A DNA stretch of 64,000 bases from an uncultured Candidatus Rokubacteria bacterium (lineage in GTDB: Bacteria > Methylomirabilota > Methylomirabilia > Rokubacteriales > CSP1-6). Below the pieces are notes generated by a model. That model was given only the letters and a program-made list of their open reading frames with translations. It made no database searches and was not told the DNA's origin. Made by a program: the position numbers and the translations under genes. How positions within the stretch are numbered: the stretch's first letter is position 1; each line of letters opens with the position of its first letter. The DNA lies in NCBI GenBank assembly GCA_963762145.1, contig CAVXJS010000009.1:384001-448000 (forward strand). Reading direction: 5' to 3'. This document shows, piece after piece, positions 1 to 49,174 of this stretch.

Positions 1-213
1 GGTCGGCTCGAGGATGATCGTGTCGGGCTTGATCCGACCGGCCTTCTCGGCCGCGTCGATCATGGCCACCCCGATGCGGTCCTTCACGCTGTGGGCCGGG
101 CTGTAGAACTCGAGCTTGGCCACCACCTGGCCCGCGGCGCCCTCGGTCAGCCGCCGGATGCGCACCAGCGGCGTGTTGCCGACGAGCGCGGTCACGTCCT
201 CCGCGATGCGCAC
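1..213 (-). CDS. cysK: cysteine synthase A, 5' part (runs off the window)
   Basis: Manual translation from GTG at 213: [22 protein letters not shown]...[26 protein letters not shown]...ILEPT, including the PLP-lysine SVKDR motif. Not in the ORF track. Confidence 0.92.
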
Positions 214-965: not shown

Positions 966-1093
966 GTCCCAGGTCCTCCGTGTCTCTTTGGATGTCCGGG
1001 AGGCGGCCGGGGTTCCCGCGCGAGGCCGGGGGGAAGTAGAATCCCTCGGGCACGAGGATCCATCTCAACCCACGACGAGTGTTTGGAGGCCGC

Positions 1094-2089
1094 ATGGACC
1101 CCGCTGGCAGCTTGCAGTTCCTCGAGCAGTACGGCGTCCTGATCCTCCCGGCCCTGGTGATCGCCGAGCAGATCGGCATTCCGCTGCCCGCGGTGCCGGC
1201 CCTCCTCGGGGCCGGGGCCCTCGCCGCGCACGGCCGCATCGACGTCCCGCTGCTGGTCGTCGCCATCTCGATCGCGGCCCTGACCACCGATCTCGTCTGG
1301 TACGAGCTCGGCCGGCGGCGCGGCGCGGTGGTCCTGTCGACGCTCTGCCGCCTCTCCCTCGAGCCGGACTCGTGCCTGCGCCGGGCCGAGGACACGTTCG
1401 TCCGTCACGGAGTGCGGGGCATGCTCATCGCGAAGTTCGTCCCCGGGCTGACCACGGTGATGCCGCCCCTCGCAGGGGTCTTCGCGGTCGGCCGCGTGCG
1501 CTTCGTCCTCTACGACCTCGCGGGGGTGCTCCTCTGGGCGGGCACGTGGCTGACGCTGGGATACGTCTTCGCCGACGCCATCACCCTGGTGACCGCCCGG
1601 GCCACCGCCCTCGGGCAGATGCTCGGACTGGTCGTGGTGGGCGCGCTCGCGGCCTACGTCCTGCTCAAGCTGGTGCGCCGCCGTCTCTTTCTCCGGAAGC
1701 TCCGCATGGCGCGCATCTCGCCCGCGGCGCTGAAGCTGCGCCTCGACGGCGGAGAGGACGTCGCGATCATCGATCTGCGGACGCCGCTCGACGTCGCGGC
1801 CACCCCGTACGCGATTCCCGGGAGCCGCTGGCTGGCCGTCGAAGCCATCGACGCGGCGGAGGCGGCGCGGCTCCGCACCCGCGAGGTGGTGCTCTACTGC
1901 GCGTGCCCCAACGAGGCGACGAGCGCCCGGGTGGCGCTGCTCCTCCAGCGGCAGGGCATCACGCGGGTCCGTCCGCTCGAGGGCGGCCTCGCCGCCTGGA
2001 TGGAGCTGGGCTTTCCGGTGCTCGCGGTCGACCCGCCCGCGGTCGCGGTCGACGAGCGCGCGGGCCGCGTCCCGTCGCGAGCCGCGTAG
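1094..2089 (+). CDS. DedA/VTT membrane protein fused to a rhodanese-like domain
   Basis: EQIGIPLP and AKFVPGL DedA motifs. C-terminal IIDLR...IPGS...LYCACPNE...LEGGL rhodanese fold. GGAGG RBS before ATG 1094. Confidence 0.88.
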
Positions 2090-2754: not shown

Positions 2755-3540
2755 GTGCTGAGGACAGGATTTGTCGGCCTGATTCTGCTAGCATCTGGCG
2801 CCATGACCGACATCACGCCCGCCGTCCGCGCCGACCTCGCTCCGACCGGGAAGCTCCGGGCCGCCATCAACTACGGCAACTTCATCCTCGCCACCAAGGA
2901 CAAGGCGACCGGCGAGTCGAGGGGCGCGGCGATCGACCTGACGCAGGAGATCGCGAAGCGCCTTGGCGTCCCGGTCGAGATCGTCGCGTACGACAGCGTG
3001 GCGGTCATGGGCGACGCCGCGCCGAGCGGGGTGTGGGACATCGCGTTCCTCGGGTCCGACCCGGCGCGCGAGAAGATCATGAGCTTCACCGCCGCGTATC
3101 TCGAGATCGAGGCCACCTATCTCGTGCCCGGCGCCTCCCCGCTGCGCACCGCCGCGGAGGTCGACCGGGAGGGTGTGCGGGTGGCCGCGCCGGCGCGGGC
3201 GAACTACGAGCTCTACCTGAGCCGCAACCTCAAGCGCGCGCAGCTCGTGTCCGCGCCGAGCGCGGACGCGGCGTTCGAGCTGCTCGCGACCGGCAAGGTG
3301 GAGGCCCTGGCCGGCCTGACCCAGGGCCTGCTCGGCCTCGCGCCGAAGCTGCCCGGATCGCGCGTGATCGACGGGCGGTTCATGGGCGTGCAGCAGTCCA
3401 TCGCGGTGCCGAAGGGCAAGGACGCCGGCCTGCTCTACCTGCGCGGCGTCGTCGAGGACGCCAAGACGTCCGGGCTCGTGGCCCGCGCCATCGAGCGGAC
3501 CGGCGCGAAGGGCGTCTCGGTGGCGCCGGCCGCGAGGTAG
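2755..3540 (+). CDS. ABC/PBP2 transporter substrate-binding protein (amino-acid family)
   Basis: LAPTGKLRAAINYGN...WDIAFL pattern of SBP family 3. Start uncertain: the RBS-linked ATG at 2738 is out of frame. Confidence 0.8.
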   Translation: MLRTGFVGLILLASGAMTDITPAVRADLAPTGKLRAAINYGNFILATKDKATGESRGAAIDLTQEIAKRLGVPVEIVAYDSVAVMGDAAPSGVWDIAFLGSDPAREKIMSFTAAYLEIEATYLVPGASPLRTAAEVDREGVRVAAPARANYELYLSRNLKRAQLVSAPSADAAFELLATGKVEALAGLTQGLLGLAPKLPGSRVIDGRFMGVQQSIAVPKGKDAGLLYLRGVVEDAKTSGLVARAIERTGAKGVSVAPAAR

Positions 3541-3579
3541 CGCGGTGGCCACCCCTAACGACCGACAAGGAGAGAGAGC

Positions 3580-4647
3580 ATGGAGATCCCCCGCACGATG
3601 AAGGCGACCGTGCTCGTCGCCCCGCACCGCTTCGAGCTGCTCGAGCAGCCGGTGCCGGTGCCGGGCGACGAGGACGTCCTCGTCCGCGTGCGCGCCTGCG
3701 GCGTCTGAGGGACGGACCTGAAGATCATCCACACCGGCATGCCGAAGATGCCGCCCTACGGCGAGTTCATCTTCGGTCACGAGTACGCGGGCGACGTGGT
3801 CGCCATCGGCCGGACGGTGGACGAGTTTCGGGTGGGCGACCGGGTGGTCGTCGAGGCGCACATGGGCTGCCGCCGCTGCGAGAACTGCATCCGTGGGCTC
3901 TACACCGCCTGTCTGAACTACGGCAACACGAAGCGTGGGCATCGCGCCAACGGGTTCACGACCAACGGGGGGCTCGCCGAGTACGCGGTGAACCACGTCA
4001 ACACGCTGTATCGCATCCCCGACGGGGTGGACTACGACGAGGCGACCGTGGTGATGACCTCGGGCAGCCCGCTCTTCGGCCTCGAGAACGCGGGCGGCTA
4101 CTTCGCCGGCGAGACGGTGGCGGTCCTCGGCCCGGGCCCGATCGGCCTCATGGCCATCCAGCTCGTCAAGGCGCTCGGGGCCACGCGCGTGATCCTCACC
4201 GGCACTCGCCCCTCCCGCCTGGCCATGGGCCGGCAGCTCGGCGCCGACGTCCTCGTCAACAGCCGGGAGACCGATCCGGTGGCCGCGGTGATGGAAGCGA
4301 CCGCCGACAAGGGCGCCGACCTCGTGATCGACTGCGCGGGCGGCGACGATACGTTCGACCAGTCCATCAAGATGGCCAAGTCCGGCGGCAAGGTGCTGCT
4401 GGTGGCCTTCTACCACGGTCCCGTGACCGCCGACGTGAGCCACGCGGTCCGGCGCAACATCACGATCTACACGGAGCGCGGCGAAGGCGGCACCAGCGTG
4501 GGCCGCGCGCTGGCGCTGCTGGCCGCCGGGCGGCTCACCGCCAAGCCGCTCATCACGCACCACTTCCCGCTCAGCCGCGTCCACGAGGCGATGGAAGTCC
4601 TCGAGAAGCGCATCGGCGACCCGCTCAAGGTGGTCTTGCTGCCGTGA
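3580..4647 (+). CDS. Zn-dependent MDR alcohol/polyol dehydrogenase with in-frame TGA (predicted selenocysteine) at the catalytic Zn ligand
   Basis: AAGGAG RBS and ATG 3580: MEIPRTMKATVL...VRVRACGV*GTDLKIIHTGMPKMPP...GHE, CxxCxxCx7C, GPGPIG. TGA 3706-3708 is codon 43 and is in frame with ORF 3739..4647. Confidence 0.85.
3735..3753 (+). promoter_or_regulatory. candidate bacterial SECIS hairpin of the dehydrogenase
   Basis: CGGCAT-GCCGAAG-ATGCCG: 6-bp stem whose G-initiated loop starts 32 nt after the TGA. A competing fold (3742-3750 with 3768-3776) is possible. Confidence 0.45.
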
Positions 4648-5603
4648 GGCGCCCGGCGTGCCGCCGCCTGATTGCGGCCGTGCTCGCGGCGGTCTGCCTG
4701 GTGGCGGGACCGGCGGCCGCGTTTCCCGACCGGCCGCTGGAGCTGACCGTGCTGTTCGGCGCGGGCAGCGCCGCCGACCTCCTCGCCCGCAAGCTGGCCG
4801 AGCTGGCCGGCAAGGGCTTGGGGCAGCCGGTCGCGGTCGTCAATCGCACCGGCGCGGGCGGGGCGCTCGGCTACACGCACGTGAAAGGTCAGAATGCGGA
4901 CGGCTACGCGCTCGTCTGGAACTCCAACAGCGTCAGCACCGCGTATCACGCCGGCAACATGAAGCTCGACTACACCGCGTTCGCCGGGGTGGCGGCGCTG
5001 ACCAGCGAGCCGGTCTCCCTCGCGGTCAAGGCCGACGCGCCGTGGAAGGACATCCGGGATCTGCTCGCTCACGCGAAGGCGAATCCGGGCCAGGTGCGCG
5101 TCGGCAACTCCGGCCGGGGCAGCTTCACCCATCTCATGGCGGTCGCGCTCGAGAACCGGGCCGGCGTCAAGCTCACCCACGTGCCGTTCGGCCGTGAGCT
5201 GGCGGTGACCACGGTGCTCGGCGACAAGATCGAGGCGAGCGTGCAGCTTCCGGCCGAGATCATGACTCAGGTGACCGGCCGCCAGGTGCGGGTGCTCGCG
5301 ATCACCGGGGACCGGCGGCTGGCCAGCCTCCCGGAGGTCCCCACCCTGAAGGAGAGCGGGGTGGATCTCACCATGTCGCTCTGGCGCGGCATCGCGGTGC
5401 CGAAGGGCACGCCGGAGGCGGTGATCGCGCGGCTCGAGCGCGCATTCACGCAGGCCGCCCAGGACGCCGAGTTTCGCGACTTCGCGGCCCGCATGGGAAC
5501 GGTGATCGACGTCCGGGGCGCCCGGGACTTCGACGCGTTCATGGCGCGCGACGACCGGGACATCGCGGCGCTGATGGAGCAGATCGGGCTCAAGAAACAG
5601 TAG
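4644..5603 (+). CDS. tctC: tripartite tricarboxylate transporter substrate-binding protein
   Basis: Signal peptide followed by FPDRPLEL..., VNRTGAGG and VPTLKESG (Bug/TctC motifs). GTGA overlap with the dehydrogenase stop. Confidence 0.9.
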   Translation: MRRPACRRLIAAVLAAVCLVAGPAAAFPDRPLELTVLFGAGSAADLLARKLAELAGKGLGQPVAVVNRTGAGGALGYTHVKGQNADGYALVWNSNSVSTAYHAGNMKLDYTAFAGVAALTSEPVSLAVKADAPWKDIRDLLAHAKANPGQVRVGNSGRGSFTHLMAVALENRAGVKLTHVPFGRELAVTTVLGDKIEASVQLPAEIMTQVTGRQVRVLAITGDRRLASLPEVPTLKESGVDLTMSLWRGIAVPKGTPEAVIARLERAFTQAAQDAEFRDFAARMGTVIDVRGARDFDAFMARDDRDIAALMEQIGLKKQ

Positions 5604-5604
5604 C

Positions 5605-6045
5605 GTGAGCCCGCGCTCCGCCGCGCGCCGCGATCAGTGGAGCGCCGTCGGCCTGGCGGTCCTCGCGCTGGGCTACCTGCTCGCCGGCCGCCGCTACCCG
5701 CTCGACACGCTCGCCACGCCCGGGCCGGGCGTCTTCCCCCTCGCGGCCGGACTCGCGCTGCTGGCACTGGCCGTCTGGCAGCTCCTCGCGGCCCGGCGCG
5801 CGGCGCCGGACCCCGCCGACGGCGGCGCCGTGCCGCGGGCCCCGCTGCTCATGGCCGCGGTGCTCGCGCTCTACGCGGCCACCCTGCCCGTGCTCGGCTT
5901 CATGCTCACGTCGCTCGGGCTCGTGTTCGTCGCCGCCCGGCTCATGGGACTCGGCGGCTGGTGGCGACCGGCCGCGCTCGCGCTCGGCGTCACCGCGGCC
6001 AGCCGTCTGCTCTTCGGCACCTGGCTGGGTGTGCCCCTGCCATGA
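5605..6045 (+). CDS. tctB: TTT small permease
   Basis: PGPGVFP motif, 4 TM helices, C-terminal LGVPLP. Confidence 0.88.
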   Translation: MSPRSAARRDQWSAVGLAVLALGYLLAGRRYPLDTLATPGPGVFPLAAGLALLALAVWQLLAARRAAPDPADGGAVPRAPLLMAAVLALYAATLPVLGFMLTSLGLVFVAARLMGLGGWWRPAALALGVTAASRLLFGTWLGVPLP

Positions 6046-7523
6046 GCGAGCTGTTCGTCGCGCTGACGCCCGGCAACCTCCTGGCCTGCTTCGCGGGCGT
6101 CGTCCTCGGCACCATCGTGGGCGTGCTGCCCGGGCTGGGGCCGGCCGGCGCCATGGCGCTCGTCCTGCCGCTGACGATCAAGCTCGGGCCGACGGCCGGG
6201 CTCATCATGCTGGCCGGGATCTACTACGGCTCGATGTACGGAGGCTCGACGACGTCGATCCTCGTCAACGTCCCCGGGGAGGCGGCCAGCGTCGTCACCA
6301 CCATCGACGGCTATCGTCTCGCGCGGAAGGGACGGGCCGGGGCCGCCCTGGCCATCGCCGCGATCGCGTCCTTCGTGGCCGGCACCTTCAGCGTGGTCGC
6401 GCTTCAGGTCGCGGCGCCGCTCGTCTCCCGCCTCGCGCTGGCCTTCGGCCCCGCCGAGTACTTCGCGTTCGCGCTGCTGGGCGTCACCGTGCTGGCCAAC
6501 CTGACCGGCGGCGCGCGCGCGAAGTCGCTGGCCATGGTCGTGACCGGCGTCATGCTGTCCACCGTCGGCATGGATCCCCTCGGCGGCACCGTGCGCTTCA
6601 CCTTCGACGTGGCGGGCGCCCAGGCCGGGCTCAGCTTCATCGCGGTGACGGCCGGCCTGTTCGGGGTCGCCGAGGTGCTGGCCACGATGGCCGCGCCGGG
6701 GGCCGCCGCGCCGGTGGCGCGCGTGCGCTTCCGCGCGCTGTACCCGAGCCGCGAGGAGCTGCGGCGCTCGGTGCCGCCGATGCTGCGCGGCACCGTGCTG
6801 GGCTTCCTGGTCGGCCTCATCCCCGGCCCGGCGGCGACGATCGCGTCCTTCGTGTCGTACGGCGTGGAGAAGCGCGTGTCGCGCTACCGGCACGAGATCG
6901 GGACCGGCGCCATCGAGGGGGTGGCCGGGCCCGAGGCGGCCAACAACGCGGCGGCCGGCGGCGGCATGGTCCCGCTGCTTGCGCTCGGCCTGCCGTTCAC
7001 GCCATCCACCGCCGTCCTGCTCAGCGGCATGCTCCTCATGAGCGTCACGCCGGGTCCGTTCCTGCTCCGCGATCACCCCCAGGTGTTCTGGGGGGTCATC
7101 GGCAGCTTCTACATCGGCAACGTGATGCTGCTGCTCCTCAACCTGCCGCTGGTCGGCATCTTCGCCCGGGTGGCCACCGTCCCGCCGCGCTACCTGATGC
7201 CGGGCGTCCTGGTGCTGTGCGCGGTCGCGGCCTACTCCGACAACAACAACGCGTTCGACGTCTGGGTGATGGTGGGCGCCGGCGTCCTCGGCTACGCGAT
7301 GCGCGGGCTCGGTTATGATCCGGCGCCCCTGGTGCTCGGCCTCGTGCTGGGCCCGGTCCTGGAGCGCTCGCTGCTCCAGGCGCTCACGATCGGGCGCGGC
7401 GACCTGCGTGAGCTGTGGTCATCGGCGCCCGCCACGATCATGCTGGCCGCCACCGCGGTGGTGCTCCTGGCGCCCGCCGCTCGGGCGGGCCTGCGACTCT
7501 GGACCCGCGCGCGCGTGTCGTGA
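6042..7523 (+). CDS. tctA: TTT large permease
   Basis: GVLPGLG, YGGSTTSILVNVPG and GPEAANNA motifs. ATGA overlap with tctB. Confidence 0.93.
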   Translation: MSELFVALTPGNLLACFAGVVLGTIVGVLPGLGPAGAMALVLPLTIKLGPTAGLIMLAGIYYGSMYGGSTTSILVNVPGEAASVVTTIDGYRLARKGRAGAALAIAAIASFVAGTFSVVALQVAAPLVSRLALAFGPAEYFAFALLGVTVLANLTGGARAKSLAMVVTGVMLSTVGMDPLGGTVRFTFDVAGAQAGLSFIAVTAGLFGVAEVLATMAAPGAAAPVARVRFRALYPSREELRRSVPPMLRGTVLGFLVGLIPGPAATIASFVSYGVEKRVSRYRHEIGTGAIEGVAGPEAANNAAAGGGMVPLLALGLPFTPSTAVLLSGMLLMSVTPGPFLLRDHPQVFWGVIGSFYIGNVMLLLLNLPLVGIFARVATVPPRYLMPGVLVLCAVAAYSDNNNAFDVWVMVGAGVLGYAMRGLGYDPAPLVLGLVLGPVLERSLLQALTIGRGDLRELWSSAPATIMLAATAVVLLAPAARAGLRLWTRARVS

Positions 7524-23615: not shown

Positions 23616-24014
23616 CTACCCCGGCTGCGCCCGGCGTACGGGCACGTCGACCGGGACCTTCATCGCGCGGCTGATCCGGCAGCCCTCGGCCGCCTCCTGG
23701 AGTCGGGCGAGCTGGGCGTCGTCGAACGTGCCCTCCACGACCAGCTCTCCCTCGACGCCGGTGATCTGCCCCTGGGCCTCCGTCGCGGTGAGGCGGGCCC
23801 GGAGGCCGCGCACCACCCACTGCTGGCGCTCGGCGAACCGCCGAACGTTGTTGATGCGTCAGGCGCCGATGGCGCCCAGGAGGAGCTCCGCGGGCGAGGG
23901 CGCCGCGTCCCCGCCCCCGGCCTCCGCCGGGGCGTCCATCTCCAGGCGGTGCGGGCCCGCCGCTCCCTCGACCTTCATGCCCGCCACCCACTGCACCGTC
24001 ACCGCTCTGCCCAT
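23616..24014 (-). CDS. OsmC/Ohr family protein, predicted selenoprotein
   Basis: MGRAVTVQW...[21 protein letters not shown]...[13 protein letters not shown] (complement 23859-23861, codon 52) replaces the first conserved Cys, and the second Cys is intact in the same frame. Confidence 0.88.
23827..23847 (-). promoter_or_regulatory. SECIS-like hairpin of the OsmC gene
   Basis: mRNA CGUUCGGCG-GUU-CGCCGAGCG: 9-bp stem with the loop starting 20 nt after the UGA and a GGUUC apex. Confidence 0.75.
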
Positions 24015-48825: not shown

Positions 48826-49174
48826 ATGGCCACGAGTCGACTGGAGCTATCACCGCAACGGCTGAATGACCTGTGCCAAGACGCAAGGGTTCCTTGCCAA
48901 GCACAAGGTGGCGGTGACCGAGCAGGCCGACGCGAAGAAGGCCACCATCAAGGGCGCGGCCGCGCTCGGCGTGCTCGACGGCGTGGACGAGCTGTACGTG
49001 GCGAAGGGCAAGAAGATCGAGCACGTCGATCTGCAGGCGGCGAAGCCGGACCGCGCCACGCTGCTGGCGCTCCTGCTGGGCCCGACCGGCAACCTGCGCG
49101 CGCCCACGCTGCGAAAGGGCCGCACCCTCATCGTCGGCTTCGAGGAAGCGACCTACAAGAAGGTGCTCACCTAG
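48826..49174 (+). CDS. ArsC/Spx-like thioredoxin-fold selenoprotein (UxxC)
   Basis: AAGGAG RBS and ATG 48826 (1-nt indel within the first codons), then VDWSYHRNG*MTCAKTQGFL...LLGPTGNLRAPTL...VGF. TGA at 48863-48865. Confidence 0.85.
48872..48905 (+). promoter_or_regulatory. SECIS-like hairpin of the ArsC-like gene
   Basis: UGUGC...GCAAGG-GUU-CCUUGC...GCACA. The loop starts 23 nt after the UGA and has a GGUUC apex. Confidence 0.75.

Follow-up and report, generated by a model that had tools for sequence, protein, structure and literature searches.

A probable selenocysteine-containing zinc dehydrogenase of soil Rokubacteria and a candidate long-range SECIS within its coding sequence

Soil Rokubacteria appear to possess a zinc-dependent dehydrogenase in which selenocysteine (Sec) takes the place of the cysteine (Cys) that holds the catalytic zinc. 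The gene lies in a stretch of 64,000 nt (hereafter the window; assembly GCA_963762145.1, contig CAVXJS010000009.1, positions 384,001 to 448,000) from an uncultured Candidatus Rokubacteria bacterium, and codes for a member of the medium-chain dehydrogenase/reductase (MDR) superfamily with an in-frame TGA at codon 43. It is very probable that this enzyme, with Sec at the catalytic-zinc Cys, represents a genuine new selenoprotein family. The explanation that we favour as a whole, with moderate confidence, is a Sec dehydrogenase whose Sec insertion sequence (SECIS) is discontinuous and long-range. A SECIS acting about 130 nt downstream of its UGA, together with the first natural enzyme carrying Sec on a catalytic, redox-inert zinc, has in our estimate a little better than an even chance of being what this gene holds.

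Results

The gene and its product

Coordinates are those of the window, and offsets are counted from the U of the TGA as +1. The features of the gene are as follows.

3567..3572, + strand: Shine-Dalgarno-like AAGGAG, 7 nt ahead of the ATG at 3580
3580..4647, + strand: MDR zinc-dependent dehydrogenase gene, putative selenoprotein form, 355 codons plus stop
3706..3708, + strand: TGA, predicted Sec43, in the column of the catalytic-zinc Cys (GxCxxD)
3775..3783, + strand: GHE motif, residues 66-68 (His67, Glu68), further catalytic-zinc ligands by homology
3868..3912, + strand: structural-zinc Cys4 lobe, CxxCxxCx7C, residues 97-111 (Cys97, 100, 103, 111)
4129..4146, + strand: GPGPIG dinucleotide-binding motif, residues 184-189, in the ADH_zinc_N domain

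The TGA at 3706-3708 (codon 43, context ACGV-TGA-GTDLKI) is the single internal stop in the 355-codon open reading frame (ORF), which ends with the TGA at 4645-4647, overlapping the GTG at 4644 of a TctC-family ORF (GTGA). A first-pass annotation of this DNA had described the ATG linked to a ribosome-binding site, the reading through the TGA with no second lesion, the GHE, the four Cys, the Rossmann motif and the GTGA overlap; all of these were found again when the sequence was re-read. Both MDR domains score above their Pfam cut-offs (ADH_N PF08240, 97.4 bits; ADH_zinc_N PF00107, 101.4 bits), and the structural-zinc four-Cys lobe and the GxGxxG motif are both present. The equivalog models stay out of reach: L-threonine 3-dehydrogenase (TDH, TIGR00692) gives 209.5 bits against a cut-off of 458.35 and scyllo-inosose 3-dehydrogenase IolM (NF041097) 212.9 bits against 450. 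Since these scores lie so far under the cut-offs, the protein is placed, by its sequence, at branch level only, in the polyol/threonine-dehydrogenase branch of the MDR superfamily. The dehydrogenase matched no selenoprotein-specific model of NCBIfam.

In a phmmer search against solved structures, codon 43 fell in one column with the Cys of 'icgsd' in 5vm2 (E 9e-49) and with that of 'icgtd' in 2d8a (8e-48). The similarity is full-length to the polyol and threonine dehydrogenases 5vm2, 2d8a/2dfv (L-threonine 3-dehydrogenase), 1e3j (ketose reductase) and 1pl6 (sorbitol dehydrogenase), with E values of 1e-40 to 1e-49, and GxCxxD, GHE, the Cys4 lobe and GxGxxG are in register with these structures. 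Unlike them, the window protein would have Sec in place of the first catalytic-zinc ligand. We take it as MDR family knowledge that the Cys of GxCxxD is this first ligand and that the His and Glu of GHE are further ligands; a literature look-up of the zinc-ligand residue numbering of P. horikoshii TDH gave nothing. On the alignment to solved homologues and this family knowledge, Sec43 is probably a zinc ligand, and we regard this with good confidence.

The TGA is conserved in one column and alternates with Cys

Two sets of sequences were compared. A search of 61 related genomes gave matches at E 1e-60 or better in 13, and in 6 of these the orthologue contains exactly one TGA (the window's own genome, G011, G034, G033, G029 and G046; 100-81% identity). 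These six genomes span several genera and two families, their stops share one column, which is occupied by Cys in the next relatives; no TGA was seen in the 69% relative G031 or in the 54% relatives. G029 is flagged as unpublished, and no conclusion here depends solely on this genome. The second set comprised 162 loci (the window's own, G031, 80 from species-representative genomes and at least 80 from metagenome contigs), of which 149 were retained as full-length and ungapped, partial or gapped matches being dropped. Among these 149 listed matches the codon-43 column holds TGA in 80 and TGC or TGT in 69. Of the matches, 36 have less than 70% identity; they come from Thermodesulfobacteriota, Spirochaetes, Bradyrhizobium and others, and every one has Cys. 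Homologues with TGA or Cys in this column, which the first-pass annotation had proposed to look for, were found: at 72% identity or more, among the matches listed (n = 113, from metagenome-assembled genomes (MAGs) and metagenome contigs), there are 80 TGA loci (76 unique) and 33 with Cys.

None of the 80 Sec forms has a second in-frame stop or an indel. Nucleotide diversity among them at codon positions 1/2/3 is 0.088/0.075/0.309 upstream of the TGA and 0.074/0.043/0.316 downstream, and 400 random pairs give a dN/dS of 0.175 over codons 1-42 and of 0.12 over codons 44-355. Purifying selection on codons 1-42 thus indicates that the 42 codons before the TGA are translated in frame. The presence of TGA in the same column of 79 other contigs takes it beyond chance or an assembly slip, and because TGA also terminates the dehydrogenase gene the codon is not reassigned. 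The pattern by which a bacterial selenoprotein is recognised, a conserved in-frame UGA whose column holds Cys in homologues and whose two flanks are conserved, was found here in full. UGA43 is in all likelihood decoded as Sec.

Public databases present most copies differently. Only 28 of the best 120 database proteins are full length, 27 of them with Cys in the motif, while 91 of the 120 have 299-321 residues, start at an internal Met54 or Met57 and lack the catalytic ligand. They go under 'L-iditol 2-dehydrogenase' or 'zinc-binding dehydrogenase', and none is called a selenoprotein.

Sec machinery and other selenoprotein candidates of the genome

The first-pass annotation had made the Sec reading depend on selA, selB, selC and selD, and all four are present in the genome. 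Genes for SelA (577 bits), SelB (363 bits) and tRNA-Sec (69.3 bits) are clustered on the window's own contig, all above their cut-offs. SelD reaches 341 bits, also above its cut-off; one selD carries one TGA, and a second selD without TGA is present as well; the two genes, one with the in-frame TGA and the other without, lie at G000 C11:419505-420437 and C14:136744-137655. The fdhA gene of the same genome has one TGA. The central proposal of the first-pass annotation, a Sec codon at the MDR catalytic-zinc Cys position, is therefore borne out by the alternation in the column, by selection on both flanks and by selA/selB/selC/selD. Its two other Sec candidates in the window also proved real:

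48836-49171, + strand, TGA at 48863: ArsC-family (putative seleno)protein, U-x-x-C, NF041106 141 bits (cut-off 85)
23619-24014, - strand, in-frame TGA with its first base at 23861: OsmC-like protein, Pfam OsmC 46.7 bits

Close to its TGA, at +21..35, the ArsC-family gene has a hairpin of 6 bp whose loop is GUU. The OsmC-like gene, which reaches 46 bits with NF041052, under the cut-off of that model, has a strong 9-bp hairpin with a GUU loop at +15..35 (-15.1 kcal/mol). The TGA of fdhA and the above-cut-off ArsC-family selenoprotein argue that the Sec trait is in use. In this genome the SECIS loops lie at +21..27 in fdhA, +25..28 in selD, +24..26 in the OsmC-like gene and +27..29 in the ArsC-family gene.

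A crude scan of the genome for in-frame TGAs with coding-like third-position G+C content on both sides returned 196 sites, most of them unverified candidates, and 137 of these have a downstream hairpin of -9 kcal/mol or better. In the 15 candidates with recognisable redox-type motifs the loops start at +20..+30, and in 15/15 the loop begins with G followed by G or U. The genome looks selenoprotein-rich, with candidates such as C11:389299, C7:195009, C11:588556, C21:768209 and C14:302379; five paralogous genes with D-U-G-S-C and several with CxxU, UxxC or T-P-G-U-T are among the scan candidates.

Sec forms carry a specific RNA constraint far downstream of the UGA

The RNA was compared between 56 unique Sec forms (57 unique Sec segments in the third-position count) and 28 unique Cys forms. 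A helix joining distant strands (LR), a second hairpin (H2) beyond it and the domain between the two strands are located as follows.

3716..3732, + strand: LR 5' strand, +11..+27, coding for D-L-K-I-I-H, predicted by minimum free energy (MFE) fold
3733..3816, + strand: inner domain looped out by LR, 84 nt (+28..111), containing hairpin A and alternative helices
3817..3833, + strand: LR 3' strand, +112..+128, coding for V-D-E-F-R/Q-V and including T3828 (+123)
3835..3852, + strand: H2, +130..+147, 7 bp with loop GGGT at 3842-3845, coding for G-D-R-V-V-V, proposed SelB-binding part

The column that best separates Sec from Cys forms in the whole gene is +123, the third position of Phe83, where 75/76 unique Sec forms have T and 32/33 Cys forms have C. 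The third positions at +126, 132, 135, 138, 141, 144 and 147 are invariant in 57/57 unique Sec segments and variable in Cys forms. Only 25 of the 355 third positions of the gene are invariant in Sec forms, and codons 86-91 are the sole run of three or more; a run of six or more arose by column shuffling in 2 of 50000 trials. When synonymous diversity in Sec forms is taken over stretches of eight codons, the lowest values (0.05; gene mean 0.314) all come from codons 82-96, where Cys forms show 0.34.

H2 is an 18-nt hairpin of -11.9 kcal/mol (z -2.85). Its 18-mer is identical in 55/56 unique Sec forms as against 4/28 Cys forms, and its loop is GGGU in 56/56 as against 12/28, the Cys forms showing several different changes. 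In LR, a helix of 17 positions, +11..27 pairs with +112..128, with breaks at 19/120 and 22/117. When 156 nt of the window sequence are folded by themselves, the MFE structure contains both LR and H2, and the inner domain is folded as well (-71.6 kcal/mol, z -1.87). Pairing is found in 99.4% of the cells of LR in Sec forms and 86.2% in Cys forms, and in 100% and 86.7% for H2, whereas three inner helices are paired alike (76-85% in Sec, 69-86% in Cys). The covariation score of the fold was reached by 0/500 shuffles in Sec forms and by 456/500 in Cys forms.

The register of LR is specific, as pairing falls to 27-47% when its partners are slid by 1-3 columns. Within LR the pair 12/127 is CG in 34, UG in 16 and UA in 6 sequences; 18/121 is AU in 42, GU in 10 and GC in 4, all four C121 occurring with G18. 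At the two interruptions, 22/117 is GC in 3 and GU in 2, and 19/120 is C-G in 6 sequences. Sec forms have 0-3 mismatches in LR (mode 2) and Cys forms 2-6 (mode 4), and in the outgroup 8 of the 15 positions +13..27/+112..126 are mismatched. When codons were re-drawn synonymously for the same protein, two or fewer LR mismatches occurred in 1.7%, an intact H2 and loop in 2.1%, and both together in 43 of 100000; a typical re-draw has 4-5 LR mismatches, which is the level of the Cys forms. The structure of LR and H2 is therefore not forced by the protein sequence. As judged from these sequences, LR and H2 are selected in Sec forms and drift to the neutral expectation after Cys replaces Sec.

Some Sec-specific biases fall outside LR and H2. 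At +9 (3714) G is present in 61/76 Sec forms and C in 27/33 Cys forms, and at +153 (3858) G is present in 54/57 Sec and 15/28 Cys. Upstream of the UGA, codons 36-43 (3685-3708) have a synonymous diversity of 0.165 in Sec forms and 0.353 in Cys forms. These additional synonymous biases may be context effects of the UGA.

The proximal hairpin

The first-pass annotation had drawn attention to a hairpin 32 nt after the TGA. This hairpin A (+31..47, 3736-3752) does exist, with 5-6 bp, a 7-nt loop that begins with G, a distance of 32 nt from the TGA and -8.5 kcal/mol (z -2.9). It did not hold up as support for a SECIS. When fold and covariation were followed across homologues, it was paired in 96.1% of cells in Sec forms and 95.0% in Cys forms, with no Sec-specific constraint, and its central pair is broken in 6/56 Sec forms. 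The same annotation had cautioned that it lacks the GGUUC apex of the two other candidates in the window. Its loop begins G then C, unlike the G then G/U of the genome's motif-bearing SECIS candidates (15/15). Hairpin A is probably not a functional SECIS.

Other proximal structures were considered and set aside. A hairpin at +9..25 is part of the long-range helix, and a helix at +36..72 hardly distinguishes Sec from Cys forms, if at all. With RNAalifold, the segment +1..+78 of 26 Sec forms yielded weak and inconsistent helices only, and a synonymous-shuffle MFE test of +4..+78 gave a modest result (z -0.84 in Sec, -0.18 in Cys). Rfam returned nothing relevant at gathering score over the window, nor at E up to 10 over 3560-3900.

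Evolution of Sec and Cys forms

A quick IQ-TREE phylogeny of 114 rows was built without the codon-43 columns and the next 75 nt, and was rooted on one 69% Cys relative, so that its root depends on one long branch. With this Cys outgroup as root, the lineages that branch off first are Sec, and the Cys forms lie nested among them. The Sec/Cys label requires 8 changes on the tree, at least 4 of them forced by the starred, well-supported branches, as compared with a mean of 29.4 after shuffling (0/500 shuffles as low). Sec would have arisen once, at the base of the orthologue clade and from a Cys ancestor, and would have been replaced by Cys at least 4-8 times since, helix and hairpin decaying each time. 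So far, and as far as sequences tell, the Sec MDR dehydrogenase is confined to one Rokubacteria orthologue clade, is unannotated and has repeatedly reverted to Cys.

The Cys orthologues of Rokubacteria (for example P0002, 93% identical, 355 aa) have the same length, domains and TctC/TctA neighbourhood and are up to 94% identical. They differ in having TGC or TGT at codon 43, in the mismatches of LR (2-6), in the H2 18-mer (intact in 4/28) and in the frequent Ser155 and Val/Ile349. Residue 155, which adjoins Glu154, is Ala in 65/65 Sec proteins and Ser in 17/31 Cys proteins; residue 349 is Leu in 56/65 Sec proteins and Val/Ile in 30/31 Cys proteins. Phylogeny may explain part of this pattern. 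A selB gene above cut-off was found in 5/5 Cys-form genomes tested, fragmented in two, and therefore the replacement of Sec by Cys is not simply a consequence of loss of the trait. The split selB genes (G061 C3:1552622-1554507 and G064 C5:46632-48515) could be assembly frameshifts or real decay.

A few loci deserve separate mention. In L080, a record titled Sulfotelmatobacter, two tandem paralogues (1724-2788 and 3001-4065), 73% and 81% identical to the window dehydrogenase, both have TGA in the same column and keep H2 and the long-range helix. Orthologues of 80-91% identity also occur in MAGs titled Anaeromyxobacter, Sulfotelmatobacter, Miltoncostaeaceae, Actinomycetes and Bathyarchaeia (L071, L080, L081, L082; P0016), which suggests mis-binning or recent transfer. 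The Sec form L056 (= L026, G034) has G-D-E at codon 67 instead of G-H-E, whereas the near-identical L152 and L153 keep His; the difference may be genuine or a variant introduced by sequencing.

Gene neighbourhood

The following genes lie downstream of the dehydrogenase.

4644..5603, + strand: TctC-family solute receptor gene, PF03401 164 bits, its start overlapping the dehydrogenase stop (GTGA)
5637..7523, + strand: TctA-family transporter gene, PF01970 491 bits, ORF as listed, true start may lie further in

TctC follows the dehydrogenase in 21 of 33 flanked orthologous loci. Upstream there is an SBP_bac_3 gene, and ahead of this transporter and dehydrogenase cluster an ORF at 1079-2089 (+ strand) encodes both a VTT (DedA-like) membrane domain and a rhodanese domain.

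Discussion

The present analysis points to a dehydrogenase in which UGA43 would be read as Sec by the SelA, SelB, tRNA-Sec and SelD of the genome itself. Sec43 would then hold the catalytic zinc with His67 and Glu68, and, as it stands in the place of the zinc Cys, the Lewis-acid zinc would carry a selenolate ligand, by homology. For the insertion of Sec we propose a discontinuous SECIS. LR would close off 84 nt of coding sequence and bring H2, which begins one nucleotide past the 3' end of LR and has its loop 133 nt from the UGA in sequence, near the UGA. If +11..128 is left out of the count, the H2 loop takes a 'virtual' position of +19..22, and if +13..126 is left out, +23..26. With the UGA in the A site, the start of LR would lie at about the point where mRNA enters the ribosome. 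The H2 loop, G then G, fits the pattern of the other SECIS loops of this genome, and it is this fit, together with the closing off of +28..111 by LR, that leads to the proposal that LR docks H2 for SelB at the canonical place of a SECIS loop, by the mRNA entrance. The element seems to be built from segments in which the protein could spare least change, G-D-R-V-V-V for H2 and L-K-I-I-H with V-D-E-F for LR, and this may be why the SECIS is not next to the UGA. That LR and H2 work as a discontinuous SECIS is, as a model, somewhat more probable than the alternatives taken together.

The published model of the bacterial SECIS (bSECIS) asks for 16-37 nt from the UGA to the apical loop, G in the first two loop positions, an apical loop of 3-9 nt, an upper stem of 4-16 bp and an MFE of -7.5 kcal/mol or lower (PMC13188914). 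Both H2 (GGGU, 7 bp, -11.9) and hairpin A (7-nt loop, 5-6 bp, -8.5 kcal/mol) agree with it in loop, stem, G and energy. In spacing, H2 at 133 nt lies outside the range, and hairpin A at 32 nt lies within it, without Sec-specific constraint. It is thus conceivable, although unlikely in our view, that the protein is a genuine selenoprotein for which SelB uses hairpin A as an ordinary SECIS. Hairpin A starts 3 nt past the LR 5' strand, so that stacking on LR as its lower stem is topologically possible, and H2 would then serve another need of the Sec form such as ribosome pausing, protection from RF2 or mRNA stability. What speaks for this is that hairpin A has all four of the published properties (7-nt loop, G first, 32-nt spacing, -8.5 kcal/mol). 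On the other hand, Cys forms keep it just as well as Sec forms, some Sec forms break its central pair, its G-C loop start departs from the motif-bearing candidates of the genome, and in the MFE fold it competes with a more stable helix. Such an arrangement would moreover leave H2, the strongest Sec-specific constraint in the gene, without a role and its invariance unexplained.

The remaining alternatives concern the UGA itself. Termination at UGA43 with a truncated product from Met54/57, or read-through by near-cognate decoding with Trp, Cys or Arg, would agree with the many short database proteins that begin at an internal Met. A product from Met54 would however be missing a portion of the GroES-like domain along with the ligand of the catalytic zinc, and the purifying selection on codons 1-42 and the intact frame of all 80 Sec forms speak for translation across the whole gene. 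The alternation of TGA with Cys codons only, the full Sec machinery in the genome and a downstream RNA structure specific to Sec forms, which would have no reason to exist if UGA43 were not Sec, make such a reading very improbable. The source of the window is a 6.26-Mb, 25-contig MAG with 88% completeness and 5.4% contamination, in which an assembly or sequencing error or a recent pseudogene could occur. Such an origin has a negligible probability here, since the same TGA is found in 79 further contigs from many assemblies, with no second lesion and with strong selection on both sides. Together with reassignment of TGA, which the terminal TGA of the gene contradicts, error and pseudogene are excluded for practical purposes.

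Several points weigh against our proposal of a Sec enzyme with a long-range SECIS. The distance of 133 nt between the UGA and the H2 loop breaks the spacing of the published model (PMC13188914), which hairpin A formally fits as a canonical proximal SECIS. A literature search gave no precedent for a long-range or distant bacterial SECIS, which is not proof of absence. H2 is invariant in Sec forms and so offers no compensatory changes; what speaks for its helix is the thermodynamics and the decay in Cys forms. The Sec and Cys forms are phylogenetically clustered, with only 4 switches on well-supported branches, so that the raw frequency contrasts between them overstate independence, and an independent-pairs test with 4 such switches cannot reach significance. 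The geometric argument of the mRNA entrance and the 'virtual' spacing is our own reasoning. Finally, the decoding of UGA43 as Sec is predicted here from sequence, and the binding of zinc by Sec43 from homology.

It is useful to set the candidate element against known systems. In E. coli a 17-nt upper stem-loop lies 11 nt from the UGA with G23 and U24 in the loop (PMC8659212). Like a canonical bSECIS of the E. coli fdhF type, H2 has a G+C-rich stem of 7 bp and a 4-nt loop that starts G-G and contains U, within the coding region; unlike it, its loop is 133 nt off and proximity would come from LR looping out 84 nt. Linear distance from the UGA is shared with the SECIS in the 3' untranslated region of archaea and eukaryotes. 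These stand outside the ORF and involve other structures and factors (PMC13188914), whereas the element proposed here is inside the ORF, about 130 nt off, in a genome with a bacterial-type SelB.

With regard to the enzyme, formate dehydrogenase (Mo/W-Se) and [NiFeSe] hydrogenase (Ni-Se) also have Sec in place of a Cys metal ligand, and Sec and Cys forms coexist (PMC13188914). Sec is established as a ligand of Mo/W or Ni and has been proposed as a ligand in metal-handling proteins (PMC13188914). Those enzymes differ in that their metals are redox-active, while the metal here would by homology be Zn(II), a redox-inert Lewis acid. The first-pass annotation had not recognised MDRs as a classical selenoprotein family, and this agrees with a 2026 review: no MDR or ADH_N protein is among the 119 prokaryotic selenoprotein families and subfamilies in its Table 1, and its text does not mention alcohol dehydrogenase (PMC13188914). 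Term look-ups in other selenoprotein papers (PMC9312934, PMC12013277, PMC13326102, PMC5029168, PMC2398784, PMC1976440) gave no alcohol dehydrogenase or zinc in that sense, and literature searches for a Sec-containing zinc or MDR dehydrogenase found nothing. A precedent for a selenolate on catalytic zinc was likewise not found in the literature searched. The MDR Sec family would be new against this literature, although Deng et al. 2026, Haft & Tolstoy 2025 or their supplements might list it. A Methylomirabilota MAG has been predicted to have 63 selenoprotein genes (Deng et al. 2026, as cited in PMC13188914).

If these readings hold, the MDR zinc dehydrogenases, a large and classical enzyme superfamily, would be added to the selenoproteome, and Sec would have a new chemical role as a selenolate on a Lewis-acid zinc, by homology. 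Current annotation mis-calls most copies as truncations without the catalytic ligand. Should the long-range SECIS be true, the rule that a bacterial SECIS lies immediately downstream would not be absolute, and the main constraint used in finding bacterial selenoprotein genes, the spacing of 16-37 nt, would be relaxed. Spacing-limited SECIS searches and ordinary gene callers would then systematically miss a class of selenoproteins. It would also suggest that a SECIS can be placed away from the residues beside an engineered Sec. The natural pairs of Sec and Cys orthologues, up to 94% identical, are suited to a comparison of kinetics and resistance to oxidation. For these Rokubacteria, the repeated reversions from Sec to Cys, with decay of the RNA element, would serve as a natural experiment in which the costs of Sec can be weighed against its benefits.

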